A model generated the notes under the pieces. It saw only the letters and a list, made by a program, of their open reading frames with translations. It was not told the DNA's origin and searched no databases. Positions 11,273 to 44,529 of a stretch of DNA of 64,000 nt are shown one piece after another. The translations under genes and the position numbers were made by a program. The stretch covers positions 91,259-155,258 of the forward strand of contig JAYUQG010000024.1 of assembly GCA_043756865.1 (NCBI GenBank), in the 5' to 3' direction. Within the stretch, counting starts at the first letter, position 1. The number at the start of each line of letters is the position of its first letter. Source of the DNA: a bacterium. Its GTDB lineage: Bacteria > Patescibacteriota > Minisyncoccia > Phycocordibacterales > UBA6899.

Positions 11273-11400
11273 ATATAAACATGCGTGCTCCAGTCACACC
11301 AATGAGCACAGTGGATTTATAGCATATTCTGTCTCAAAATCAAACTTGGATGTCATTTGCATGCGGTTAGGAATTAATCACCAGTCCTAAGTTCACAGAC

Positions 11401-11424
11401 AGGACTCGGTCACGAGTTACTAAG
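11401..11424. repeat. 24-nt repeat related to the repeats next to tRNA-Gln (36153-36186 and 37301-37331, reverse complement)
   Basis: aggactcggtcacgagttactaag matches the reverse complement of cttagtgactcgtgaccgagtcc at 36153-36175 at 22 of 24 positions. Confidence 0.5.
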
Positions 11425-11550
11425 TCTTTTGGTGCGAAGGCCACCAAAAGCCCAAGTACTCCCGACCCCGACTCGCCCGTCTCACAAGGCTTCGACATGG
11501 CTCCGTCTTTCGATTCCTGATGAAAGTGCCATTGGGCGCTTTTTTGTAAT

Positions 11551-11623
11551 TGTTGCGGGGACAGGAATCGAACCTGTGCCTGAAGGTTATGAGCCTTCCG
11601 AGCTACCGCTGCTCCACCCCGCT
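11551..11623 (-). tRNA. tRNA-Met-like (anticodon CAT) with a mismatched 1-72 pair (possible initiator)
   Basis: The reverse complement reads AGCGGGGTGGAGCAGCGGTAGCTCGGAAGGCTCATAACCTTCAGGCACAGGTTCGATTCCTGTCCCCGCAA. Classic TTCGATT T-loop. Positions 1 and 72 form an A-A mismatch. Confidence 0.75.
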
Positions 11624-22976: not shown

Positions 22977-23036
22977 GGAGGACGTATCACTCATACGCCC
23001 TCGCAAATATTGCCGCAGTCCAGGACTTCGTACTGC
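22977..23036. repeat. 54-nt intergenic repeat, copy C
   Basis: ggaggacgtatcactcatacgccctcgcaaatattgccgcagtccaggacttcgtactgc matches copy B at 784-839. Confidence 0.6.
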
Positions 23037-29243: not shown

Positions 29244-30059
29244 GTGATGTATATGAAAAATAACACAATATTGAGCATCGGAGTGGGTGTTGTTGCACTC
29301 GTTTTTACTCCAGCGGGACTTATTACTGCAGAAACTACAGGTGCGGGAGTACAGAGTAAGCCGCAGCCGCTCCTTTATATGGAGGCAGGTGGTGAGGCGG
29401 GAGGAGAAGGGGGTATTATCATGGAAGACCGGGTGAAAATGGAAGGAACTACCATGACAAAAGAAGAGATGGAAAATGCTCGTCCCATGGAAAAAAATAT
29501 TGATGCAATCAAAAACGAAATAGACACGGACGATGATACTGACGAGGATCTTTTTGATATCGAGATAGATATTGATGTGGACGCACTCATGAATGATAAG
29601 AATGAGTCAAGTCATACTCATGAAGGTAAGAGTGATATAGATGAGGCAGATGATGTTGACTCTGCGGCTGATTTCGAACATTTCGTCTCTTTTAAAGTGA
29701 AGGCAGATGATCGCATCAAAGATGTTGATATTAAGGACGGAAATCTCGTTGTCACCTACGCTCTCCCTGTTAAATTCTTTGGATTTTGGAAAACATCGTT
29801 GAACACTACAGCGGAGGTGGATAGTGCGGGCACTGTGGAAGTCCGATACCCCTGGTATGCGATATTCATGAGAAAAGAGTTTTCGAAGAAAACACTCGAG
29901 CCAATATTCACCGCATCGCTTGAAGCAGAGCAGGGCGGAAGTGCAAAGGCCTATGTCGTACCCCATGTTTTTGATACTGTTGTAAAAACTTTTAGCGAAG
30001 TTTCTTCCAGTGAGTTGTCTTACTCCGCGAAAACAGGAAAAACGGGAAAGACGAAGTAG
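29244..30059 (+). CDS. Secreted acidic hypothetical protein
   Basis: Signal peptide, then a highly acidic D/E-rich stretch (DTDDDTDEDLFDIEIDIDVD). Confidence 0.5.
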   Translation: MMYMKNNTILSIGVGVVALVFTPAGLITAETTGAGVQSKPQPLLYMEAGGEAGGEGGIIMEDRVKMEGTTMTKEEMENARPMEKNIDAIKNEIDTDDDTDEDLFDIEIDIDVDALMNDKNESSHTHEGKSDIDEADDVDSAADFEHFVSFKVKADDRIKDVDIKDGNLVVTYALPVKFFGFWKTSLNTTAEVDSAGTVEVRYPWYAIFMRKEFSKKTLEPIFTASLEAEQGGSAKAYVVPHVFDTVVKTFSEVSSSELSYSAKTGKTGKTK

Positions 30060-30062
30060 CGT

Positions 30063-30092
30063 TAAAAAAGACCCCGATTGGGGTCTTTTTGC
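30063..30092 (+). terminator. Rho-independent terminator
   Basis: aaaaaagaccccgattggggtctttttgc. Confidence 0.75.
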
Positions 30093-30150
30093 TATCCCTT
30101 GATGTATCACCGTAAACCCGTTACGCTACAGCTACTCATTTGTATAACGT

Positions 30151-32034
30151 ATGACACAAGACACCGCACTTACAATTATGAAAACCGGGGCAAATATTTT
30201 CCTCACTGGTGAGCCGGGGTCTGGAAAAACACATACCGTGAACGCATATGTGCGGTACCTGAAGGAGCATGGTATTCAACCTTCCATCACTGCGTCGACG
30301 GGGATTGCCGCAACACATGTCGGAGGTATGACGATTCACTCATGGAGCGGTATTGGGATACGTCGCGCACTCTCCGAATATGACCTTGATGCAATGGCCT
30401 CGAACGAGGGGCTGGTCCGCCGACTCGCGAAAGCCAAAGTGCTTATCATCGACGAAATCTCGATGCTTGATGGCACGGTGCTCGACATGGTCGACCAAGT
30501 CTCGCGCACGATAAGGATGAAACAAGAACCCTTTGGCGGGCTACAGGTGATTTTGGTGGGTGACTTCTTTCAGCTCCCGCCGATTGCAAAGCAAGGCGAA
30601 CGTGCGCAGTTTGCGTTTGATTCAAAGGCGTGGAAACTCGCCAATCCAATTATTTGCTATCTTTCTGAACAGCATCGCCAAGAAGACACGGCGTTTCTCT
30701 CGACCTTGGGTGCGATACGTCGCGGGGAATTGGAGGACAGTGTCTTTGAGTATATTGGTGAGCGTAACGTGGCACCGGGTGAACACCCACTCGATATTCC
30801 CCAACTGTACACACACAATATCGACGTCGACAAAAAGAACACCATAGAACTAGAAAAGCTCACCAGCGCACCTGTGGTCTTTCTGATGGAAACAAAGGGG
30901 AGTACGGGGCGGGTAGAACAGTTGGTAAAAGGATGCCTCTCGCCAGAGGAATTGGTCTTGAAGGAAGGTGCGTCTGTCATGTTTACCAAGAACAGCTTTG
31001 ATTCAGGTTATGTAAATGGCACACTCGGTACGGTCATCGGGTTTGATGCTGACAACGGATTTCCTATCGTGGAAACACGTGATGGCGATGAGATAACGGC
31101 GTTTCCGTCGGAGTGGGCAGTGGACGATAGTGGCAAGGTCCTCGCGACCATCACGCAAGTGCCACTACGACTCGCATGGGCTATCACGGTGCACAAAAGC
31201 CAAGGACTCTCGCTGGACGCGGCGGTCATGGACCTCTCACGTGCGTTTGAGTACGGTCAGGGGTATGTCGCACTCTCACGTGTTCGTGAATTCGCTGGTC
31301 TGCATATTCTTGGTATCAACCAGCGCGCGTTTGAGGTACATCCACTCGTCCTTGAACGCGATCAAGCATTCCGCGAACGCTCCGACGATGCAGAGCGTGG
31401 TTTTGAAGACATGCCACCGTCTGATCTCCTGGCACTCCACAATAATTTTATTACTGCTATGGGGGGAACGATTCATGCCGTCGCGCTTGATGAAGCGACA
31501 AAAGCCCCGAAGATTTCTACATATGAACAAACACTCGCACTGGTCGCAGACGGAAAAACTCTTGCAGAGATTATCGCACTTCGCGGGATGACCGAGGGTA
31601 CAATTGTGAAACATCTCGAAGAGCTCGCGCTTTCGGGCAATCTTCCGCCCCTCGAGATGGCACAATTCACAGGACTCGAGCAGCGTGGGCTCGACGATAT
31701 ACGGGAAGCCATCCTCGGCGTAGAAGGAGGTTACTTAAAGCCTATTTATGAAGCGCTCGATGAAGCCTATTCTTATGAAATGATTCGACTTGTGCGCTTA
31801 GCCACAGGCGCTCTGGCAAAGCGTAAAGAAGAGAGCACAGAGCAAAAAGTCGCTCGTAAAGAACCAGCCACTGCGAAGCCAGACAATCTTGGTGCCAAAT
31901 GGTCAACGGAAGAGGAGTCACGTCTGAGAGAAATGTTTCAATCGGGAATGAAGACTGCGCACATCGCCCGCGAGCTCAAGCGTCAATCGGGAGGTATCCG
32001 TGCGCGACTCAAGAAGCTCGGGTTGCTTGAATAG
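30151..32034 (+). CDS. PIF1/RecD-family ATP-dependent helicase with a C-terminal HTH domain
   Basis: Walker A GEPGSGKTH, AAA_30-like core (LIIDEISMLDG), UvrD_C-like region and C-terminal HTH_40-like segment. Confidence 0.75.
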   Translation: MTQDTALTIMKTGANIFLTGEPGSGKTHTVNAYVRYLKEHGIQPSITASTGIAATHVGGMTIHSWSGIGIRRALSEYDLDAMASNEGLVRRLAKAKVLIIDEISMLDGTVLDMVDQVSRTIRMKQEPFGGLQVILVGDFFQLPPIAKQGERAQFAFDSKAWKLANPIICYLSEQHRQEDTAFLSTLGAIRRGELEDSVFEYIGERNVAPGEHPLDIPQLYTHNIDVDKKNTIELEKLTSAPVVFLMETKGSTGRVEQLVKGCLSPEELVLKEGASVMFTKNSFDSGYVNGTLGTVIGFDADNGFPIVETRDGDEITAFPSEWAVDDSGKVLATITQVPLRLAWAITVHKSQGLSLDAAVMDLSRAFEYGQGYVALSRVREFAGLHILGINQRAFEVHPLVLERDQAFRERSDDAERGFEDMPPSDLLALHNNFITAMGGTIHAVALDEATKAPKISTYEQTLALVADGKTLAEIIALRGMTEGTIVKHLEELALSGNLPPLEMAQFTGLEQRGLDDIREAILGVEGGYLKPIYEALDEAYSYEMIRLVRLATGALAKRKEESTEQKVARKEPATAKPDNLGAKWSTEEESRLREMFQSGMKTAHIARELKRQSGGIRARLKKLGLLE

Positions 32035-32043
32035 CTATCCCGA

Positions 32044-32158
32044 GTTATGCACACCCACCCCTTGCGTAATTCTACACAGGGTGTATATTTCATTCATCGA
32101 GACGATACGTCGTCTCAATTTAACAAAGCCTGTCACCCGACGGGCTTTTTTACGCCTC
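32044..32158 (+). repeat. Direct repeat R (~115 bp) holding a promoter-like element, an 18-nt hairpin and an intrinsic terminator; left copy
   Basis: About 95% identical to 33721-33837. ttgcgt, 16 nt, (tgt)atattt. Hairpin gagacgatacgtcgtctc. Terminator agcctgtcacccgacgggctttttt. Confidence 0.7.
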
Positions 32159-32178
32159 GATAAAGTATTAAGTATTTC

Positions 32179-32226
32179 AGCGCGAAGCGCAGAGATAGTG
32201 AGTCCTCGAGCGACAACGCCAAATAG
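32179..32226 (+). repeat. Direct repeat X (48 nt), left copy
   Basis: agcgcgaagcgcagagatagtgagtcctcgagcgacaacgccaaatag matches 33666-33712 at roughly 80%. Confidence 0.6.
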
Positions 32227-32262
32227 AAAGAAAAAACCGCCTTTTAGAGGCGGTCTGGTTTT

Positions 32263-33591
32263 TTAAGCTACTTCGTCGATTTTCTCAAGCGGGCGATCAT
32301 TGATTGCACGTTCAAGTGAACTCAAACGTTTGTAGATTGAGAGCATTTCGACAATAGTCGGCCAATTGAGGACCAAATATTGAAAAGAACTTTCTACTCT
32401 TCCGAATGCGCGCACAATCTGCTGCATGACTCCAAGGGTGAATCCTGCAAGTATCGCCTCTTTGGAAAGCAGGGTTGGTGCGAGTGCGATGTAGGGAACG
32501 AGTGCACCCGCCTGTAGATAGCTATACCGCACCATGTTGAAGTACATGTAGTGAAAGTACATCCGAAAGTAGTTTGTTCTCACGTGACCAAACAGCTCAC
32601 GCAATGTCTTCGGTTGTGCCCGAGTTTCGTCCTCTTCGCCGAATACTAGCTCCTTGCGGTAAGCGTGCTCCACTCGTTGGTTGTGGAATTTCAATGTCGG
32701 CAGATAATAACCCGTCAGTGCGAGCACAATCGTACCGAAAACAGACCAGCAGACTGCAATAATCACCAATCCATGGGCGATCGGTCCGATGACGGGTATC
32801 TCCGAGACAAACTTCGTCGAGAGCATCCAAAGAATCGGCAAGAACGCAATGAGCGTCATCACCGCATCAAGCAGTCCCGCACCCAATCCTTCCATGATGT
32901 CTGCAAAACGCATCGTGTCGTCTTGAATACGTTGGGACGCTCCTTCGATGTGACGGACTTTGCTCCATTTCCCAGTATAGTACTCGTTCATCGCGGTGCG
33001 CCACCGGAAGTTGTAGTGCTGGATGAAATAGTTTCCCAGCGTTCTCACAATCACAAACACCGCTGCAATGGTGAAAAAGGTGGCCAGACGTCCGTAGTAC
33101 TCAGTATTTTCGATAGTTCCGGGGTTCGCAAACATGGTTTGAATCATGTTGTAAAACCCACCGAACCATTCGTTAATCATGACATCGAGTTGCACCTGAA
33201 ACCACGTGAAAAAGATAATCACAGCGGAACCAAGAAGCGACCACTTCAGCCATTTGTGTGAACTACAGAAGTACCAGCAGGCAATAAATATTCCGTAGCA
33301 AGGGATGAGGAATTGGTATGCCCAAAAAGTCACCGCGCTTCCGAGCGCACTTATCTGGGATTGCACCAACTTTACTCGCTCGGGGTCTGTCTTTGCACCG
33401 AATCGCGCCGCTTCCTTTTGTAGCGTTTCGAGTAATCCGTAGTCGAGTTGAGCAAAGCCGAACCATTGACCAACGGAATACATTTGACCTGTTTGCTCTC
33501 CTAATGTGAACCAAAACACCAAGCAGGCAAGTGCCCATATCACAAATGAGCCAAAGAAGAGGAGCGGCCTCGGAAAGAAGGAATTAAACAT
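32263..33591 (-). CDS. sbmA: SbmA/BacA-family peptide (microcin/antimicrobial peptide) transporter
   Basis: 442 aa, collinear with enterobacterial SbmA along its whole length by eye: MF.SFFP, RWRTAMNEYY, HIEGA.QR.Q.DTMRFA, NQRVE.AYRKELV.GE.D.TRA, FHYMYFN, SIYKRL. Confidence 0.85.
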   Translation of the reverse strand: MFNSFFPRPLLFFGSFVIWALACLVFWFTLGEQTGQMYSVGQWFGFAQLDYGLLETLQKEAARFGAKTDPERVKLVQSQISALGSAVTFWAYQFLIPCYGIFIACWYFCSSHKWLKWSLLGSAVIIFFTWFQVQLDVMINEWFGGFYNMIQTMFANPGTIENTEYYGRLATFFTIAAVFVIVRTLGNYFIQHYNFRWRTAMNEYYTGKWSKVRHIEGASQRIQDDTMRFADIMEGLGAGLLDAVMTLIAFLPILWMLSTKFVSEIPVIGPIAHGLVIIAVCWSVFGTIVLALTGYYLPTLKFHNQRVEHAYRKELVFGEEDETRAQPKTLRELFGHVRTNYFRMYFHYMYFNMVRYSYLQAGALVPYIALAPTLLSKEAILAGFTLGVMQQIVRAFGRVESSFQYLVLNWPTIVEMLSIYKRLSSLERAINDRPLEKIDEVA

Positions 33592-33665
33592 TGGGGGACC
33601 CCTTTTGTGTCGAGAACTTTGTCTGTCAAAAGTCTAAAGGAAGGCGCAAATATAGCAACTGCATT

Positions 33666-33712
33666 AAGCGCGAAGCACCCGGATAGTGAGTCCGCGAGCG
33701 GTAACGTCAAAT
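33666..33712 (+). repeat. Direct repeat X', right copy
   Basis: agcgcgaagcacccggatagtgagtccgcgagcggtaacgtcaaatag. Confidence 0.6.
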
Positions 33713-33720
33713 AGCCCCCA

Positions 33721-33837
33721 AGTTATCCACACCCACCCCTTGCGTAATTCTACACAGGGTGTATATTTCATTCATCGAGACGATACGTCGTCTCAATTTA
33801 ACAAAGCCCGTCTCTGACGGGCTTTTTTACGTCTCCA
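33721..33837 (+). repeat. Direct repeat R', right copy (promoter-like element, hairpin, terminator)
   Basis: Near-identical to 32044-32158, including gagacgatacgtcgtctc and agcccgtctctgacgggcttttttacg. Confidence 0.7.
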
Positions 33838-33901
33838 CAACCGCCACAGCTTTTTCAAGAAAAAAACCGCCAACTGTTGATGGCGGTTTATTGTGTTTCT
33901 G

Positions 33902-34621
33902 CTATTTACGCAGTTTGCGAATGAGCGGTTTCACGAGTATGAGGGTGATGTTGAGTGCAATCAGGCAAAGCCACAATCCAAATAGGTATTTCATGGCTGT
34001 GAAAAACCAGTCATGTTCAGTCCAGATTTCTTTGAGCGTGAACACGAAGTAGTCTGGGTCATGCCACGCGAATGCGACGATTGCTGCCACAAAAAGTGAG
34101 GTGAGGATGATTTGCCCTCGTGGTTCCTCCACAAGCCACGCGCCGATGCGCTCGAGACGATTCGTGATTTTGCTCCACCCCTCCGCCGTTCGTACGGCGA
34201 TGGGTGTCCAGAATGCACGGAGTGCTTCGTGAATTGGATCCCATGCCATATGCCAAATCTTGGTGACCCAACTTGCGGTAGCATTCCACATGCGGGCAAG
34301 TCTGTCGCCGAGTCTCAGCACGCTCACGATGGCCACTATGGTGAGGGCGACCTGACCCAAGATTGCAAAGGGAAGTCCCACAATAAGGAGCGGAATACCC
34401 CACCATGCACCTGCAGAAATTCGTTCAACAAATGCACTGCCGAGCAGTAGCGCAAAAGAGAGAATCGCCACTCCCCATGCAGGTAAGAGTGGCATTTCAT
34501 GGCGGAGCCAAAATTTGAGCCCCACAAACAGGTGGAAGTAATAAGCAATTCCTGATTTCTCGGGAACTGATTCATGCCTTGCGAGGTACGGACGCTCAAA
34601 GAAAAACCGTGCAATGTTCAT
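33902..34621 (-). CDS. Hypothetical membrane protein
   Basis: 239 aa with several TM helices. No motif recognised. Confidence 0.5.
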   Translation of the reverse strand: MNIARFFFERPYLARHESVPEKSGIAYYFHLFVGLKFWLRHEMPLLPAWGVAILSFALLLGSAFVERISAGAWWGIPLLIVGLPFAILGQVALTIVAIVSVLRLGDRLARMWNATASWVTKIWHMAWDPIHEALRAFWTPIAVRTAEGWSKITNRLERIGAWLVEEPRGQIILTSLFVAAIVAFAWHDPDYFVFTLKEIWTEHDWFFTAMKYLFGLWLCLIALNITLILVKPLIRKLRK

Positions 34622-34758
34622 GTGATGAACCCCTTTTTATCTTTCTGCAAACTACAACGATAAATGGTTATTGTAAAGAGCTTGTCGTCATGTGGTGTAT
34701 TGCACTCTCCGCCCCCACCCCGTATCATTTGCACCAGCATGTACAGCGGGAAAAGGTA

Positions 34759-35055
34759 ATGGGCAAAATGGATACATGGCGTATGACCGAAACAGGCACG
34801 GTCGGAGAATGGATACAGGCACCCAATGGTGAATTTGTGGGGACTATTGTCTCCGACTGTGGCGATGTGTACATCGCAGGAAGCAAGGACTGCCCTGATC
34901 CCTACGATGGCGCGCTCATTACCAAAGGCACGCGCGTGCGCTTCGTCCCCGAGCAAAAGGGGAACAAGGTGAAAGACATGGACACGGGTGTTCCGTACTC
35001 TTGGGGCGTCGCTCGAGAAATCGCGATTGTTCCTAAAACACTCAAGCACCGTTAG
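34759..35055 (+). CDS. Small hypothetical protein
   Basis: The internal ATG with an upstream AAGG gives 98 aa (MGKMDTWRMTETGTVGEWIQ..). The longer ORF from 34579 has an implausible Cys-rich N-terminus. Confidence 0.4.
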   Translation: MGKMDTWRMTETGTVGEWIQAPNGEFVGTIVSDCGDVYIAGSKDCPDPYDGALITKGTRVRFVPEQKGNKVKDMDTGVPYSWGVAREIAIVPKTLKHR

Positions 35056-35396
35056 CGGTGCTTTTTCTTTGCACCGCTAATTTCCGCGGACTCACGCACC
35101 CAGGCGTCGATTTGCTCGCGGTCAGTCATGATTTCTTCGGGGACTTCCCAGTAGCTCATGGCTACCTTCTTTTGGTCTTTGCTTGAATATGCAAACGGGG
35201 CGCTGCCTAGCGTTTCATAGTGAGCACGGTTTGTCTCGTTCACCTTGAAATAAAGCGTGCTTTCGGCAATGATTCCAAAAATTATCCCGTCTAAGTACAG
35301 CCCATAGCCGCCAAACATGGATTTGGAGGTAATGCCACGAATGCGCCCTAAGACATCATGCACCACATAGTCGTGGAACTCACTCGATTTTTTCAT
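35052..35396 (-). CDS. TfoX N-terminal domain protein (TfoX/Sxy competence-regulator family)
   Basis: VLGRIRGITSKSMFGGYGLYLDGIIFGIIAESTLYFKVNE..APFAY..MSYWEVPEEI matches the TfoX_N pattern. Confidence 0.7.
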   Translation of the reverse strand: MKKSSEFHDYVVHDVLGRIRGITSKSMFGGYGLYLDGIIFGIIAESTLYFKVNETNRAHYETLGSAPFAYSSKDQKKVAMSYWEVPEEIMTDREQIDAWVRESAEISGAKKKHR

Positions 35397-35848
35397 GGAC
35401 GTGGTTTGTGCAATGCTTCTTGCTCAGTCTTAAAACGAAACCATACTTTTCTCCAGTACTGGTAAGTGAGAAAAATAAAGACTCCTGCTAAGGCCGACCA
35501 TGCTCCAAGCAGAAAAAAGTAGGCACACCAGAAAAGTTCTTTGATATAAAAATATTTGATGAGTTTTGGGTAGCAACTCACCTCCGCCTGTGTGGCGTCG
35601 GGGTACTTTCTGCGCTGCGCTTCTTCTAGACTGTTTGCCACTGATGCGTGCATCCAAGAAAAGAATACCGCACAGACACCGAGATATTCGATCCAACCCT
35701 TGTTTGAAATATACGCAGTAGTAAGCAATACGAAAGCCACAATAATGGATTCAACTTGCCACGTATGCATGCCCGTCAGCTTCTGTATGCGCACCATACC
35801 GAGGCAAAAGAGGTTTTTCATAGTGCAAATTGTAACATGGACAGACAT
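35393..35848 (-). CDS. Hypothetical membrane protein
   Basis: 151 aa with three or four TM helices. Overlaps the downstream gene by 4 nt, suggesting an operon. Confidence 0.45.
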   Translation of the reverse strand: MSVHVTICTMKNLFCLGMVRIQKLTGMHTWQVESIIVAFVLLTTAYISNKGWIEYLGVCAVFFSWMHASVANSLEEAQRRKYPDATQAEVSCYPKLIKYFYIKELFWCAYFFLLGAWSALAGVFIFLTYQYWRKVWFRFKTEQEALHKPRP

Positions 35849-35918
35849 GGGGGTAATACCTTGAAAAATAGACGCATTTGGCTATACTGCGTAGGTTAGT
35901 TGGATTGATATAACATAT

Positions 35919-35989
35919 TGCGGGTTCGTCTAATGGTAGGACGTTACCCTCTGGAGGTAAATATTGGGGTTCGAGTCCCTGACCCGCAG
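35919..35989 (+). tRNA. tRNA-Gln (anticodon CTG)
   Basis: TGCGGGTTCGTCTAATGGTAGGACGTTACCCTCTGGAGGTAAATATTGGGGTTCGAGTCCCTGACCCGCAG. U1-A72 pair and anticodon loop CTCTGGA. Confidence 0.85.
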
Positions 35990-36057
35990 TTACCACACAA
36001 AAACACTCTGCCAAGAGTGTTTTTGTTTTGTGGTAACTCGCGGGTCAGGGACTCGAA
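35971..36057. repeat. 87-nt palindrome: tRNA-Gln 3' end, a 20-bp hairpin, and an inverted copy of the tRNA 3' end
   Basis: tcgagtccctgacccgcag..ttaccacacaaaaacactctgccaagagtgtttttgttttgtggtaa..ctcgcgggtcagggactcgaa. Confidence 0.7.
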
Positions 36058-36152
36058 ATGCGTAAGGTGGTATACAAGACGAGCGAAGCGAGTGCTTGTC
36101 ACCGAGCCGGGGTCGAGAGCACTTTGTAGTTCGGTGGCCTTGCGCCGAAATA

Positions 36153-36186
36153 CTTAGTGACTCGTGACCGAGTCCCTGACCCGCAG
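36153..36186 (+). repeat. att-like direct repeat of the tRNA-Gln 3' end (18 of 19 nt identical)
   Basis: cttagtgactcgtgaccgagtccctgacccgcag, compared with the tRNA 3' end tcgagtccctgacccgcag. Confidence 0.6.
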
Positions 36187-36221
36187 CAATGTCGCAACGT
36201 CACCCTTTTTGGGTGATTTTG

Positions 36222-36391
36222 CTATGGGTGAAAATTGTTTGTGAGGGTGATGTTTTTCTCCCCCCGCTCAATTATGCCAATATATGTGCGGTGCACCTCG
36301 GCGCGCTCTGTGAGTTTTTCTTGGGAAAGCTCGCGTTTCAAGCGTTCCTCGCGGACTCGTTTGCCGAATTTGGTTAGCAACTGTTTATTCA
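36222..36391 (-). CDS. XRE-family (Cro/CI-type) HTH transcriptional regulator, 56 aa
   Basis: Below the 60-aa cutoff of the ORF track. The minus-strand translation reads MNKQLLTKFGKRVREERLKRELSQEKLTERAEVHRTYIGIIERGEKNITLTNNFHP, a canonical HTH_XRE. Divergent from the DUF2726 gene, with a palindrome gtaggaagttgcctac between them. Confidence 0.7.
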
Positions 36392-36452
36392 TATCTACAT
36401 GTACAGTGTAGGAAGTTGCCTACCATGGTTCTACATACTAAAGTTAGCAAAT

Positions 36453-37043
36453 ATGGACAATAATGCGGTGATATTTATACTAGTTGTTTTTGTTGTTTTT
36501 ATTGTGATGAAGATGTTTTTTCAAAAAAAGACACACACAAACACTCATTCAAAAAGCGGACTAATCCTTTCAATCATCTCGCTTTTGTTACCATTCGCGA
36601 AGGAGTTTTTAGAAAAGAGACAGGAGGAAAAGAAGTATATTACAGAAGACGCTCGATATAGTAAAAAACAATATTTCATGACGACCGCTGAGCATCATGT
36701 TTTCGACCAGTTGTTAAAAATAGCAGGGGAGAAATATCACGTCTTTCCGCAGGTGCACTACAGTAAAATTATGTACGCCGAGGGACAGCAGAATTTCCAT
36801 AATCCGTGGTTCAACAAGATAGACCGAAAGTCCGCAGACTTTGTACTTTTTGACAAGCACGACATTTCTCCTGTTTTGGTGATTGAGCATGACGATAAGA
36901 CTCATAATCGTAAAGACCGAATTGAAAGGGACGATTTTATTGACCACACACTTGAAAAAAGTGGAATTTCAATTGTGCATGTTCGACCATTCGCGACCGA
37001 AGAGGAACTGAAGAAACTACTCCAAGTAAAAATCAGTATATAA
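36453..37043 (+). CDS. DUF2726-like protein (PD-(D/E)xK nuclease-like fold) with an N-terminal TM segment
   Basis: Core FDQLLKIAGEKYHVFPQVHYSKIMY..ADFVLFDKHDISPVLVIEHDDKTHNRKDRIERDDFIDHTLEKSGISIVHV matches the DUF2726 pattern (..DF.. ..IELDD.SH....R..RD.F.D..L...GI.L.RI). Confidence 0.55.
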   Translation: MDNNAVIFILVVFVVFIVMKMFFQKKTHTNTHSKSGLILSIISLLLPFAKEFLEKRQEEKKYITEDARYSKKQYFMTTAEHHVFDQLLKIAGEKYHVFPQVHYSKIMYAEGQQNFHNPWFNKIDRKSADFVLFDKHDISPVLVIEHDDKTHNRKDRIERDDFIDHTLEKSGISIVHVRPFATEEELKKLLQVKISI

Positions 37044-37300
37044 GCTTGGATTGGCTTAAAATTGTTCCAACGTCGTCCCACACTCCCAGCAAATGGAAGC
37101 ACCCCTTGGGGGTGTTTTCATTTGCGGGAAAAAGTGCTCTGCAGCACTTTTGGCAGGGACTCGAAGCCGTTCTCCCCTATTTGTGAAGGATTCTTATCCT
37201 GAGTAAATGGAAAACGGGTACTGCCCCTGTAAGGGGAGAGTCTCTGACTCGGAAGACTGAGGCGAAACACTTGGCACATAAGCACTCCTGTGCGAATATG

Positions 37301-37331
37301 TTTAGTAACTAATGACCAGTCCCTGACCCGC
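37301..37331 (+). repeat. att-like partial repeat (agtccctgacccgc) with a flanking ttagtaact motif
   Basis: tttagtaactaatgaccagtccctgacccgc. 14 nt are identical to the tRNA-Gln 3' region. Confidence 0.5.
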
Positions 37332-37364
37332 TACTAAATTGAGTGAGGTTCGGTTCGCGAGAGT

Positions 37365-37790
37365 ATGATTATGACGCCAGAAAATTTAATAAACATAATA
37401 AGTATCGGAGGGGCACTACTAGGTGTTGTTGTTGGAGCACTCCTTAATCACTTTCTAGAAAAAGATAGAAATAAAGACTCTTTAATCTTAAATAAGAAAA
37501 TTGATATTTACTCCTCCCTGTTAGTTAAATTAAATACAGTATTTCAAGACAGTGAGAAAAATATTCTTAATGACCCACTCTTTGAAACAACAATCAGAAC
37601 AACCCTTGCACAATCATTGTCAGAAGCTCGCCTAATAGCTGATGCAAAATTAGAACAGAAACTCAGGGACTACTATGATGAAGCAGTGCTTTTTTGGGAG
37701 AATAAAAAGTACGACAACACCATGCCTAATTTAGTTATTGAGATTGAGCAGTTGATGCGAATTGAGCTAGGAAAAGAACGTCTGCATTAA
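37365..37790 (+). CDS. Hypothetical small membrane protein (one N-terminal TM plus helical region)
   Basis: 141 aa. A TM helix at 12-30 is followed by a charged helical segment. Confidence 0.45.
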   Translation: MIMTPENLINIISIGGALLGVVVGALLNHFLEKDRNKDSLILNKKIDIYSSLLVKLNTVFQDSEKNILNDPLFETTIRTTLAQSLSEARLIADAKLEQKLRDYYDEAVLFWENKKYDNTMPNLVIEIEQLMRIELGKERLH

Positions 37791-37915
37791 TCATTTTGCT
37801 GAGCGCCGAAATGACTTCTTTCAAATCGCCTTATATATCATTATTGGCTTAATGGGGGAAAGTAGGACGCAGGGGGCTGCGGTAAAACCACGAAGTGAAA
37901 AGAAGTATCGATCCA

Positions 37916-38614
37916 ATGAAAAACGAAAAAATTAACTCAAAAATCATCGCTCTGTGGAACAAGTATTTTCAGAATGACACTGAGGTGTACGCACCGATGT
38001 TCTACGATGACTTCAAGCGGGGCGGGTTATTGTTTGTCGGCATGAACCCGTCATTTAGCGAGCGAGGATTCAAGACGATCTTGAAAGGCACAAAGTATGA
38101 GAAGATTGACCCCACTTCGTTTTTCAGGTGGAGTAATATTTCCTCAAACCCTGATCTTATCAGCGACTGTATTGCGGTCGAGACCCATGCGTACGAGAAT
38201 TACAAACCCTTCTTTGCTCGTCCTGTTGCGATCGCAAAAGAAGTCGGGCTTGATTGGCAACACATTGATCTATTTCTTTATAAAGAAACATCGCAGGCAG
38301 ATTTCAAGAAACGCATTAAGGATGGTGACTTGCTGAATCAATTTGCACTCGAGCAAATCGCGCTCTTTGAGGAGGTGCTCCTTGCGATTGAGCCGAAGTG
38401 CATCATCGTTGCGAACGCATTCGGCTCCGAGCTTCTCCGTGAACACATCAAGAATGACCTCTTGTGGGATAAAGAGCGGGGATTTCACTGGTTCACCAAA
38501 GGAGGACGAAAGATTCCCATGCTCTTTTCCTCCATGCTTAGTGGGCAAAGAGCACTTGATCGGTGGTCGTATGAACGCTTGAAATGGCACGTTGGGCAGG
38601 CGGTAAAATCATGA
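37916..38614 (+). CDS. Hypothetical protein, possibly a divergent uracil-DNA glycosylase superfamily member
   Basis: LLFVGMNPSFSE resembles UDG motif A (GMNPG in SMUG, GINPG in MUG). C-terminal PMLFSSMLSGQRA resembles motif B (HPSP/MPSSSAR). By-eye similarity only. Confidence 0.3.
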   Translation: MKNEKINSKIIALWNKYFQNDTEVYAPMFYDDFKRGGLLFVGMNPSFSERGFKTILKGTKYEKIDPTSFFRWSNISSNPDLISDCIAVETHAYENYKPFFARPVAIAKEVGLDWQHIDLFLYKETSQADFKKRIKDGDLLNQFALEQIALFEEVLLAIEPKCIIVANAFGSELLREHIKNDLLWDKERGFHWFTKGGRKIPMLFSSMLSGQRALDRWSYERLKWHVGQAVKS

Positions 38615-39321
38615 AAATTATGACAGGAATATTTTTTTCACATCCACATACACTTTCAGATCAAGTAGGTAAAATCTTGGAAAGAGTTGGTCCTCAGAAA
38701 TTCTTTTCAAGTTCTGACAAAGAAGTGAAGAAAGCACAAGAAGGATTCGCGGCATATTTCTTCACTCTTACTTTAAAGAAATACACAGGAAGAGACTGGT
38801 GGTTAGCTCAATACGATCAAGCGGCTCGGTCTTATCCAGATTTTAATTTTATATCATTCGCCGAAAATCCTGGCGATATAAAGATGGAACCAGTAGAACT
38901 AACTGGTATTTATCCTCATTTCAAAACTTTTGATGAGGCCTTAAGAGTTGTTGAAAATAAAAAGAAGAAATATGGATCTGAGCCAGTGAATTTTAGTCTG
39001 CTGGTATTTGTTAATCACGAAAAAAGCGAAGAGTGGATTAATCTGCTAAGGGAGAAAGTGAGTAGCGAGCATCCATTCCTAAGTATTTGGACTATACACT
39101 TGAGATTCAAGAAGGGTGGAAAGGAAGTTGGTAAGTCGGTCGCCCAAAGCATACCCCCCTTGCCATGGCTGAGGATTGAAGCAGATACTGATGATTCAGA
39201 AGTGCACAAGCGCCAGCCGCTCCCATCCTATATGGAAGAGCATCATGAAGGAAGGAATACTTACGTCACATTCAAACCCGAGTTTCTTGATAAGATCAGG
39301 TCGTTGCAAAAAAGTGCCTAG
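38611..39321 (+). CDS. Hypothetical protein; its start overlaps the previous gene (ATGA)
   Basis: 236 aa with no motif recognised. 4-nt overlap with the upstream gene suggests an operon. Confidence 0.45.
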   Translation: MKIMTGIFFSHPHTLSDQVGKILERVGPQKFFSSSDKEVKKAQEGFAAYFFTLTLKKYTGRDWWLAQYDQAARSYPDFNFISFAENPGDIKMEPVELTGIYPHFKTFDEALRVVENKKKKYGSEPVNFSLLVFVNHEKSEEWINLLREKVSSEHPFLSIWTIHLRFKKGGKEVGKSVAQSIPPLPWLRIEADTDDSEVHKRQPLPSYMEEHHEGRNTYVTFKPEFLDKIRSLQKSA

Positions 39322-39628
39322 TTTGTTGGTGCTGTAAGAATATCCCCGAATGGCTTCACTGTACGGTATTTGTTGTAAATGAGGCAGAGACAGAGACGGG
39401 TGTTTTGTGTCTTATCTGTAGCATTCACAAAATGACCCCAGTGACCGAGACGCCTAGTTACAAGAGTAGAAGGGGTGGTAAGATATCCGTATAAGGTCTT
39501 GCCCTACATGTTTGAGACCGAGATAGTCAGCTATCAACAATAGGTTCGGCTGACCGAGTGCTATCAGAACTGGAAATTTAAAGATTCACTCAATTCCATC
39601 CCGACATACCGGCTGAGTGCCGTATCTA

Positions 39629-39667
39629 GAAACTCAAAGTCGCTCAATGGGCGACTTTGAGTTTGAG
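39629..39667 (+). other. Strong 13-bp hairpin in a 600-bp noncoding stretch
   Basis: aactcaaagtcgctcaatgggcgactttgagtt. Confidence 0.5.
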
Positions 39668-39806
39668 TTGTAGAATAGGTCTGTAATCTATAGGATATAC
39701 AAATGTCAGTCAAACTCATTCTGAAGAGATAGTCCGCTTCTTGAAAACCACAGAGCCGGAAGCCATTTGTATTAGGGGTGAATAGGGTGTCAGATTTGCA
39801 ACTTTC

Positions 39807-39821
39807 GGTTCGAATCCCTGA
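39807..39821 (+). repeat. tRNA T-arm-like fragment (ggttcgaatccctga); possible degenerate right att boundary
   Basis: 15 of 16 identity to the tRNA-Gln T-arm/acceptor junction ggttcgagtccctga. Confidence 0.4.
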
Positions 39822-39933
39822 AGCATTACCTCCACGGAATTGCACTGTACTTTCACCTTTTTTTATATTGCCTTGCGTTTTGTGCAGATATTGATAGTTT
39901 GAGCAGTATTATTTATCAACGCACGGCTTCTTT

Positions 39934-44034: not shown

Positions 44035-44178
44035 TCTTGCTCGTTTATCAAAAAAACCGCTACTTGGCGTTGCCGCTCGAAGACTCACTTTTTTTGCGCG
44101 CTTTGCGCGGTAGATACAAAAAGCCATCACGTGGTTTTTTGGTAACACGGTCTCTATGTATTTTGCTAGAATACATTA

Positions 44179-44529
44179 ATGGAAAAACACCGTATCTACA
44201 CAATGAGCTTTGCTAGTGTTTATCCATTGTATGTCGCCAAGGCAGAGAAAAAGGGGCGTACGAAAAAAGAGGTGGATGAGGTCATCCGTTGGCTGACGAG
44301 GTACAGCCAGAAAGAATTGGGCACGCAACTGAAAAAACAAACAGACTTCGAGACGTTTTTTGGTGAGGCACCCGAAATGAATCCTGCGCGAGCATTAATT
44401 ACCGGTGTTATTTGTGGTGTGCGATTAGAAGATATTGAGGAAGCGCTTATGCGCGAAATCCGTTATCTGGATAAACTTATCGACGAGCTGGCTAAGGGGC
44501 GTACGATGGAGAGGATTTTGCGAAAGTAA
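44179..44529 (+). CDS. DUF2200 family protein
   Basis: [73 protein letters not shown] matches the DUF2200 pattern. Confidence 0.65.

Follow-up and report, generated by a model that had tools for sequence, protein, structure and literature searches.

A 64-kb stretch of DNA from a metagenome-assembled contig (JAYUQG010000024.1, positions 91,259 to 155,258; hereafter, the window) contains a gene for an SbmA-family peptide transporter (sbmA) that is framed by two pairs of direct repeats, which we denote R and X. This frame is a later, lineage-specific addition of non-coding DNA around a resident sbmA gene and not the footprint of a gene transfer. Because the convergent pair that sbmA forms with a helicase gene is found in four relatives that lack R and X, we consider it very likely, judging by comparison of the sequences, that sbmA is ancestral at this locus and that R and X arrived later. 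The complete explanation, namely a resident sbmA gene followed by the addition of R, an element that resembles a small RNA (sRNA) gene, and of X, appears to have about an even chance of being correct in all its parts.

Absence of the repeat frame from related loci

The helicase/sbmA pair is syntenic in two loci of Candidatus Lloydbacteria (L002 and L003) and in two Logan contigs (L090 and L091). In all four, the spacer between the two genes is 32-43 nucleotides (nt) long and contains one bidirectional terminator and neither R nor X; the terminator in the L090 spacer (AGACCGCCTCACATGAGGCGGTTTTTTC) is a clear homologue of the terminator T1 of the window. Relative to other loci of bacteria of the candidate phyla radiation (CPR), the window carries ~190 extra nt in the interval from the helicase stop codon to T1, comprising R and the adjacent X copy (X1). 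On the upstream side of sbmA, the homology with L002 and L003 covers the leader and the extended -10 element TGCTATATT (33657 to 33649) and ends at 33658, 5 nt before the second X copy (X2). Profile searches of the 12 CPR sbmA loci with nhmmer were negative for both R and X. Beyond the right R copy (R′), the gene for a 239-aa protein has a sole homologue, in L096 (54% identity), and the same terminator AAACCGCCAACATGTTGGCGGT follows that gene. Under this scenario, two unrelated kinds of lineage-specific non-coding DNA would have been added later to both intergenic regions beside sbmA.

On the plus strand, the order in the region is helicase gene, R, X1, T1, sbmA, a 72-nt promoter-bearing leader, X2, R′, a second terminator (T2) and the 239-aa gene. 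The sbmA gene (32263..33591, minus strand) encodes a 442-aa predicted orthologue of the SbmA/BacA (SLiPT) proton-driven peptide importers, and its extended -10 element (33649..33657, minus strand), a direct reading of the sequence, is conserved in L002, L003 and L090. The left R copy (32039..32163, plus strand) starts 4 nt past the stop codon of the helicase gene, and R′ (33717..33840, plus strand), which shows the same sub-features, starts 2 nt past X2. X1 (32176..32226, minus strand) lies between R and T1, and X2 (33664..33714, minus strand) has its end 10 nt upstream of the sbmA -10 hexamer, where the homology with the relatives stops; the strand assigned to X is the one on which CTATTTGGCGTTGTCGCTCGAGGACTCACT and the small hairpin GCGC-UUC-GCGC are read. 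T1 (32234..32256) is the ancestral bidirectional terminator for sbmA and has its homologue in the sole sbmA/helicase terminator of L090 and L091, whereas T2 (33864..33889) is the native terminator of the 239-aa gene, being located also 3′ of the homologous gene in L096, and lies outside the duplication. The neighbor convergent with sbmA, which is kept in the relatives, encodes a PIF1/RecD-like helicase with an HTH_40 domain (30151..32034, plus strand); on the other side, the gene for the 239-aa membrane protein, of a family without assignment (33902..34621, minus strand), opens a variable stretch between sbmA and the tRNA-Gln gene.

The initial annotation of this region, made from the sequence alone, had described the R and X repeats with coordinates that proved right to within 2-5 nt. 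R and R′ can be aligned over ~125 nt, with repeat blocks of 96 nt at 97% identity and 25 nt at 88% identity in a repeat search, and share an identical core of 81 nt (32050..32130 = 33728..33808, plus strand), the two cores being spaced 1,678 nt apart. A 69-nt R probe has exactly 2 matches in the 64 kb of the window, compared to 0 expected from shuffled sequences. X1 and X2 are 82% identical over 51 nt and flank sbmA as originally described; however, there is also a third copy within the window, X3 (44060..44112, plus strand), in the opposite orientation, which is associated with neither R nor sbmA and is intergenic, upstream of a DUF2200 gene (44179-44529). The order of the elements around sbmA is mirrored (R-X...X-R), yet all four are in direct orientation, and therefore a plain duplication of one R-X unit would not yield this frame.

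An independent assembly contains the same repeats. The window is matched at 100% identity by three Logan unitigs from run SRR23617209 (L097 = 29973-32079, L001 = 32101-33757 and L089 = 33801-39912), which end exactly k-1 = 30 nt inside the R cores. Given that such ends are the behavior of a k=31 graph at a two-copy repeat, R is duplicated in that assembly too. Extension of the sequence past the limits of the window added 1.1 kb.

Two possible extensions of the repeats were examined. The sequence AAAACCGCC occurs only at T1 and T2, so that the terminators could be regarded as part of the duplication; this possibility was rejected since each has a conserved counterpart of its own, T1 in the sbmA terminator of L090 and L091 and T2 in the terminator of the 239-aa gene homologue in L096, and the likeness is taken as convergent. 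A potential X remnant after R′ (CACAACCGCCACAG) is ambiguous, being equally similar to the 5′ stem of T2.

The R and X elements

The sequence of R is compatible with a self-contained transcription unit of 125 nt on the plus strand, which would consist of a sigma-70-like promoter, a hairpin with a UACG loop, a linker and an intrinsic terminator. The promoter-like hexamers TTGCGT (32062-32067) and TATATT (32084-32089) match the consensus in 3/6 and 5/6 positions and are separated by a 16-nt spacer. They are followed by the hairpin GAGACGA-UACG-UCGUCUC (32099-32116; 7 bp), an A/U-rich linker downstream of it, and a terminator with a 10-bp G+C-rich stem (32125-32134/32139-32148) and a U6 tract that is present in both copies. 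This terminator is not listed by the consensus scan; we think, as a guess, that A-U pairs extending the stem into the U tract account for the omission. The RNAs of 58-59 nt predicted to start just past the -10 hexamer of R and R′ fold into two hairpins (-24.6 and -25.5 kcal/mol, z = -7.4 and -6.5, respectively). As a best guess from these features, we tentatively propose that R is a putative gene for a small RNA of ~60 nt present in two copies; transcription of R as an sRNA is possible but somewhat less likely than not. The suggestion of the initial annotation that a promoter/terminator-type cassette was involved agrees well with the appearance of R. As a by-product, R would provide the helicase gene on the left and the 239-aa gene on the right with a terminator of their own ahead of the ancestral terminator and promoter of sbmA.

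The differences between R and R′ are not distributed evenly. The approximately 7 differences are located in the outer 44 nt (both edges) or in the terminator loop and none is found in the 81-nt core, for which we estimate a chance of ~7e-4 if the differences were uniformly spread. The terminator loop is ACCC in R and UCU in R′, and one position of the stem is U.G in R and C-G in R′. On the plus strand, the stem change is near-neutral (-24.6 versus -25.5 kcal/mol), whereas on the minus strand it yields an A.C mismatch and predicted energies 4.9 kcal/mol apart (-24.0 versus -28.9). This single wobble-compatible change between the two copies is the sole covariation-type signal for R. The pattern fits constraint on a plus-strand RNA unit, which could be an sRNA gene or, at a minimum, a module for termination, and the functional core of both copies would be kept alike by selection or by gene conversion.

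Duplicated sibling sRNA genes, such as OmrA/OmrB, contain a promoter, a 5′ hairpin and a Rho-independent terminator. R resembles such siblings in that it consists of two near-identical short units with promoter-like hexamers, a hairpin, an A/U-rich linker and a terminator, and in that the variation is confined to the loop and a wobble-compatible stem position. Unlike those siblings, the R copies are not adjacent but flank a protein-coding gene, and they have no orthologues elsewhere and no predicted target.

Other functions considered for R were rejected. Each R copy contains one DnaA-box-like site, TTATGCACA at 32045-32053 in R and TTATCCACA at 33723-33731 in R′; with one such box (TTATNCACA) per copy and no cluster, a replication origin was discarded and the box judged incidental. 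No switch of GC skew is seen: the skew remains positive over almost all of the window, and the dip at 32-36 kb is small and local. As for coding potential, the small open reading frames (ORFs) in R differ between the copies, R′ lacking the ATG and an indel changing the reading frame.

X is an element of ~50 nt that includes a 26-nt unit and a small covarying 3′ hairpin. It is likely, on comparison of the copies, that X represents a dispersed family that is not specific to sbmA. The initial annotation had allowed that R and X might turn out to be common repeats without any specific link to this gene, which is the case for X and not for R (2 copies in 64 kb). A scan of Joint Genome Institute (JGI) metagenomes with a degenerate X pattern produced 2 matches, in contigs L087 and L088 (116 and 158 kb), which have identical sequences over the compared part. 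In L087 (JGI contig Ga0155243_114), three tandem 26-nt X units (1270-1347) directly follow the TrmD domain, which ends in Pfam at residue 220 of 233; the first unit belongs to a full X that supplies the last 16 codons of trmD (..TVRSTRKSESASDNAK) and the TAG stop codon. Over the first 34 nt of X, identity is 76-91% across the two organisms; X1 agrees with the foreign copy in 31 of the 34 positions but with X2 in only 29, and therefore the X1/X2 pair did not arise by a fresh local duplication. The 3′ hairpin is GCGC-UUC-GCGC in X1, GUGC-UUC-GCGC in X2 and GUGC-UUC-GCAC in L087, so that one pair appears as C-G, U.G and U-A. The wobble pair is possible only on the strand that reads CTATTTGGCG..., which for both X1 and X2 is the sbmA strand. 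X is an older dispersed repeat of ~50 nt that is present also elsewhere in this genome and in another organism.

Repetitive extragenic palindromic (REP) sequences are imperfect palindromes, and miniature inverted-repeat transposable elements (MITEs) have terminal inverted repeats with target-site duplication. X shares with REP/BIME, ERIC, Correia and other MITEs its small size, non-coding nature and dispersal, its location at gene ends or in intergenic regions, sometimes in tandem, its presence in more than one genome, and the ability to overlap the last codons of a gene. It differs from REPs and MITEs in not being palindromic, in lacking terminal inverted repeats and target-site duplication (neither the repeat search nor the 4-copy alignment revealed inverted arms), and in a copy number that seems low (3 in 64 kb). 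No Rfam family matches X.

Three further interpretations of these elements were rejected. As a promoter (TTGRCG-16-CACTWT), X would be positioned 10 nt from the downstream -10 element of sbmA and 55 nt from that of the DUF2200 gene, and in L087 it would be directed into trmD in antisense orientation. All copies of X keep a frame open, reading ..SES(S/A)S(D/G)N(A/V)K-stop; a profile of this tail had no match in 5.8 billion proteins. A phage or viral origin of R and X was discarded given that the pattern search of IMG/VR detected no match to either.

Several observations weigh against the proposed explanation. The consensus promoter scan reported no promoter between 31900 and 34000, and the -35-like box of R matches in only 3/6 positions. 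The R hairpins fold on both strands, and gene conversion between neutral duplicates would also yield an identical core with divergent edges. Searches of the CPR loci, the JGI metagenomes and IMG/VR yielded no homologue of R, and the element is represented by two copies in 64 kb; therefore, cross-species conservation of R cannot be shown. No Rfam family matches R, and no convincing target of the RNA was found: an 8/9 match with the sbmA start, noticed by eye at AUGUUUAAUU, was rejected given that this translation start ranks 52nd among the 68 genes in a duplexfold comparison, a crude test that ignores intramolecular structure, and that seed matches are scattered at random. The flanking of one gene by both R copies and by two of the three X copies, in mirrored order, has no explanation in this scenario; possible causes are local copying, tolerance of insertions in both intergenic regions, or a regulatory connection with sbmA. 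Finally, the assignment of the window to CPR rests on the names of its nearest relatives and not on a marker gene inside the window.

The principal alternative is that R and X are functionless leftovers of local duplication or small non-autonomous mobile elements that are tolerated only in a few roomy intergenic regions of a compact genome, with the identity of the R cores resulting from a recent copying event or gene conversion and not from function. This alternative is possible, if somewhat doubtful. The dispersed nature of X, its tandem expansion and its overlap with the 3′ end of trmD in the other organism are what would be expected of an inserting repeat; R has neither a homologue elsewhere nor a detectable target; and relatives do well with a single spacer of 32-43 nt. 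Furthermore, both R copies start right after ..AATAGC, which is contributed by the helicase stop (GAATAG) on the left and by the end of X2 (AAATAG) on the right, a coincidence that hints at microhomology-mediated copying. However, R and X lack the terminal inverted repeats and target-site duplications of mobile elements, and R has only 2 copies in the window, whose differences are concentrated in the loop and at the edges and spare the promoter-like region, hairpin and stems. The conservation of X across two organisms, with a compensated hairpin, is likewise not readily accommodated by neutrality.

The presence of two identical R cores has potential consequences for the stability of the locus. 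Genes bounded by direct repeats can undergo RecA-dependent or slippage-mediated deletion or tandem amplification, and the minimal homology for RecA-type recombination in model bacteria is shorter than the 81-nt perfect direct repeat observed here. The R cores could serve as a passive substrate for homologous recombination or replication slippage, leading to deletion or tandem amplification of the 1.68-kb sbmA unit. The locus resembles known amplifiable genes in that an 81-nt exact repeat brackets a 1.6-kb unit comprising one gene with its promoter and terminator; it differs from them in that no variant was observed and in that the repeats did not originate by duplication of the gene region, the gene predating the repeats as judged from the relatives.

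It has to be considered whether the R pair is an integrase-free recombination device, maintained since recombination would loop out or amplify the sbmA unit (with a circle carrying X-R-X) in part of the population and so tune a trade-off between the uptake of useful and of toxic peptides; R itself may also encode a new CPR small RNA. With such a device, members of a CPR episymbiont population would differ heritably in the copy number or on/off state of a promiscuous peptide importer, through which nutrients as well as toxic peptides enter. A device of this kind appears improbable. The length, identity and spacing of the R cores are suitable, and loss of SbmA in Escherichia coli is known to confer resistance to several peptide antibiotics (PMC8442886). 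However, deletion would be irreversible, and the R copies differ at both edges, as stable separate copies would. No deleted or amplified variant was found, and the contig and all unitigs fit a single chromosomal copy, although the k=31 graph would look no different for a chromosome plus a circle or for a tandem array.

SbmA in bacteria of the candidate phyla radiation

By all the sequence comparisons performed here, the 442-aa protein is a genuine SbmA orthologue that is predicted to import peptides. It matches the Pfam family SbmA_BacA (PF05992) with E=3.5e-131 and 437.8 bits, compared to a cutoff of 24, over residues 112-430 and profile positions 2-314 of 315. The match to the NCBIfam equivalog NF008306/PRK11098 "peptide antibiotic transporter SbmA" scores 521.4 bits (cutoff 492) over the full length, 1-440. 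The best match among solved structures is E. coli SbmA (7p34; E=1.6e-117), with 173 of 341 aligned residues (51%) identical. The collinearity with enterobacterial SbmA that had originally been recognized by eye is thus borne out, and the comparison proposed at the time places the protein at 51% identity to the E. coli protein, with CPR sequences as the nearest neighbors.

Ghilarov et al. tested a set of residues of E. coli SbmA functionally (PMC8442886). Of 13 such residues, 10 are identical in the protein encoded in the window and the remaining 3 are conservative changes: in the glutamate ladder, E203, E276, E287 and E378 are identical and E193 is replaced by D; Y116, R190, R280, K281, Y368 and R385 are identical as well; and Y285 and D288 are replaced by F and E, respectively. 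The protein contains no ABC ATPase or nucleotide-binding domain, PF05992 and PF06472 being the only families matched, and no ABC ATPase is encoded by the neighboring genes (the helicase and the 239-aa protein without a family match). The lack of a fused ABC ATPase is the criterion that sets SbmA/BacA apart from BclA/Rv1819c (PMC12003926). Overall, the protein resembles E. coli SbmA and Sinorhizobium meliloti BacA (SLiPT, 7p34) in being full-length collinear and free of a nucleotide-binding domain and in retaining the ladder and gate residues. It differs from E. coli SbmA by an insert of ~29 aa after TM0. The host is also different, being a CPR/Patescibacteria-type genome, whereas the family has been reported only from Pseudomonadota.

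The 13 closest proteins are 62-82% identical to the SbmA of the window, and the next matches, from Alpha-, Beta- and Gammaproteobacteria, are at most 58% identical (57-58% for the best proteobacterial sequences). Among species-representative genomes, the three closest loci belong to two metagenome-assembled genomes of Candidatus Lloydbacteria (81%) and to a 102-kb scaffold of Candidatus Kaiserbacteria (67%). A neighbor-joining distance tree of 38 sequences recovers the CPR clade (P0001-P0014) in 100 of 100 bootstrap replicates. At the protein level, the window and L002 differ to a similar degree in the helicase (74% identity) and in SbmA (81%), and the tRNA-Gln gene is also syntenic with the relatives. 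The composition of sbmA is typical of the window: its GC content is 0.484 compared to a mean of 0.482 +/- 0.046, and its GC content at third codon positions is 0.567 compared to 0.504 +/- 0.067, both within 1 standard deviation.

Given the synteny in relatives, the similar divergence of the helicase and SbmA, and the typical composition, a transfer of this gene is judged not to be recent. Smith et al. (2025) surveyed 1,255 species and detected SbmA/BacA in no phylum other than Pseudomonadota (PMC12003926); the surprise expressed in the initial annotation at finding SbmA in a genome of this type was therefore justified. Its proposal of horizontal transfer survives in part: an old inter-phylum transfer of SbmA into CPR bacteria is plausible, and a recent transfer is contradicted by the fully supported CPR clade, synteny and composition. 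In the most plausible history, a proteobacterial-type SbmA would have entered CPR bacteria once, long ago, and would then have been inherited vertically in a Lloydbacteria-like lineage.

The opposite reading, that R-X...X′-R′ is an att-like or duplication-junction footprint of a recent acquisition of an sbmA cassette from Proteobacteria, had been put forward on the basis of the flanking direct repeats, and it could draw further on the restriction of the family to Pseudomonadota in the survey, on the occurrence of sbmA in different neighborhoods in other CPR contigs, and on an integration hot spot at tRNA-Gln 2.3 kb away. We consider it very improbable. The best proteobacterial identity is 57-58%, compared to 81% to Lloydbacteria, and the four relatives share the helicase/sbmA junction together with its terminator, without the repeats that were supposed to mark the acquisition; moreover, X1 and X2 are not each other's closest relatives. 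The segment bounded by the repeats contains sbmA as its sole gene, and no integrase, recombinase or transposase family matched among the genes tested between 22.9 and 44.5 kb. An empty site, with the flanks joined and the cargo absent, was not seen in the relatives, all four of which carry sbmA. Equally improbable is an assembly artefact, in which one R copy or the placement of sbmA would result from a repeat mis-join or strain mixing: the window does derive from a metagenome-assembled contig and the short-k unitigs break at R, but all four R edges (two entering and two leaving) are represented by exact unitigs of the independent assembly in 2 samples, the two R copies carry distinct edge variants, and the helicase-sbmA order matches that of the relatives.

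The 5′ leader of sbmA (33592-33663) contains invariant TAG..CAG.C positions and a purine-rich ribosome-binding site that are shared with L002, L003, L082, L085 and L086; across these otherwise divergent CPR loci, it may be a conserved leader or operator. Upstream of the DUF2200 gene, an extended -10 element (TGCTAGAAT; region 44163-44181) ends 6 nt before the ATG, which suggests, from the spacing, that the mRNA is leaderless. Extended -10 elements are found also at sbmA and at tRNA-Gln (TGATATAAC), so that promoters of this type may be the norm in this genome.

Neighboring elements and the host range of SbmA

The tRNA-Gln gene (35918-35990) is followed by an insert of ~183 nt (region 35918-36236) at the end of which 17 nt from the 3′ end of the tRNA are repeated directly (GAGTCCCTGACCCGCAG; 35973-35989 and 36172-36188). 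In L002, tRNA-Gln runs directly into the sequence that is found here after the second repeat (97% identity). The insert contains a hairpin, the reverse complement of the T-arm and acceptor of the tRNA, and a module of ~75-115 nt that recurs beside tRNA-Met (11400-11530, minus strand; region 11380-11623), again after the complement of the T arm of that tRNA. This organization resembles that of a small non-autonomous element with tRNA 3′ ends as its integration sites; Rfam contains no matching family. In L002, a 504-aa ORF (230-1757), with an N-terminus that appears resolvase-like by eye, overlaps the end of the syntenic tRNA-Gln gene.

The stretch between tRNA-Gln and sbmA encodes one 131-aa membrane protein in L002, compared to genes for a 239-aa protein, a 90-aa protein, a TfoX_N protein and a 151-aa protein in the window, and by this comparison of gene content is a variable hot spot beside sbmA. 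Just past tRNA-Gln, between 36000 and 40000, the GC content drops to 0.425-0.455, compared to 0.48 overall, and the genes include an HTH_3 gene, a DUF2726 gene and several genes without a family match; this stretch is probably an island. Elsewhere in the window, a 51-nt direct repeat (88% identity) is located at 784-834 and 22980-23030. The first copy lies in a 445-nt intergenic region upstream of a prepilin (N_methyl) gene, beside a very G+C-rich, hairpin-forming stretch (~845-960), and the second is upstream of the probable start (~23222) of a 500-aa ORF. This repeat, for which no Rfam family matched, may be a shared 5′ leader element.

The frame of repeats around sbmA illustrates the accretion of non-coding modules around a gene in a compact genome, which is a modest finding; X and the tRNA-linked insert are uncharacterized CPR repeat families, and sbmA, being located between identical 81-nt repeats, is in principle structurally unstable. 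The more notable result is the existence of a well-supported clade of true SbmA orthologues in CPR bacteria of the Lloydbacteria and Kaiserbacteria type, with the glutamate ladder kept and the ATPase domain absent. Given that Pseudomonadota were the sole phylum in which the most recent survey found SbmA/BacA (PMC12003926), this clade widens the host range of the SLiPT family beyond that phylum. It also points to the use of a proton-driven, promiscuous peptide importer by some auxotrophic bacteria of ultra-small size.

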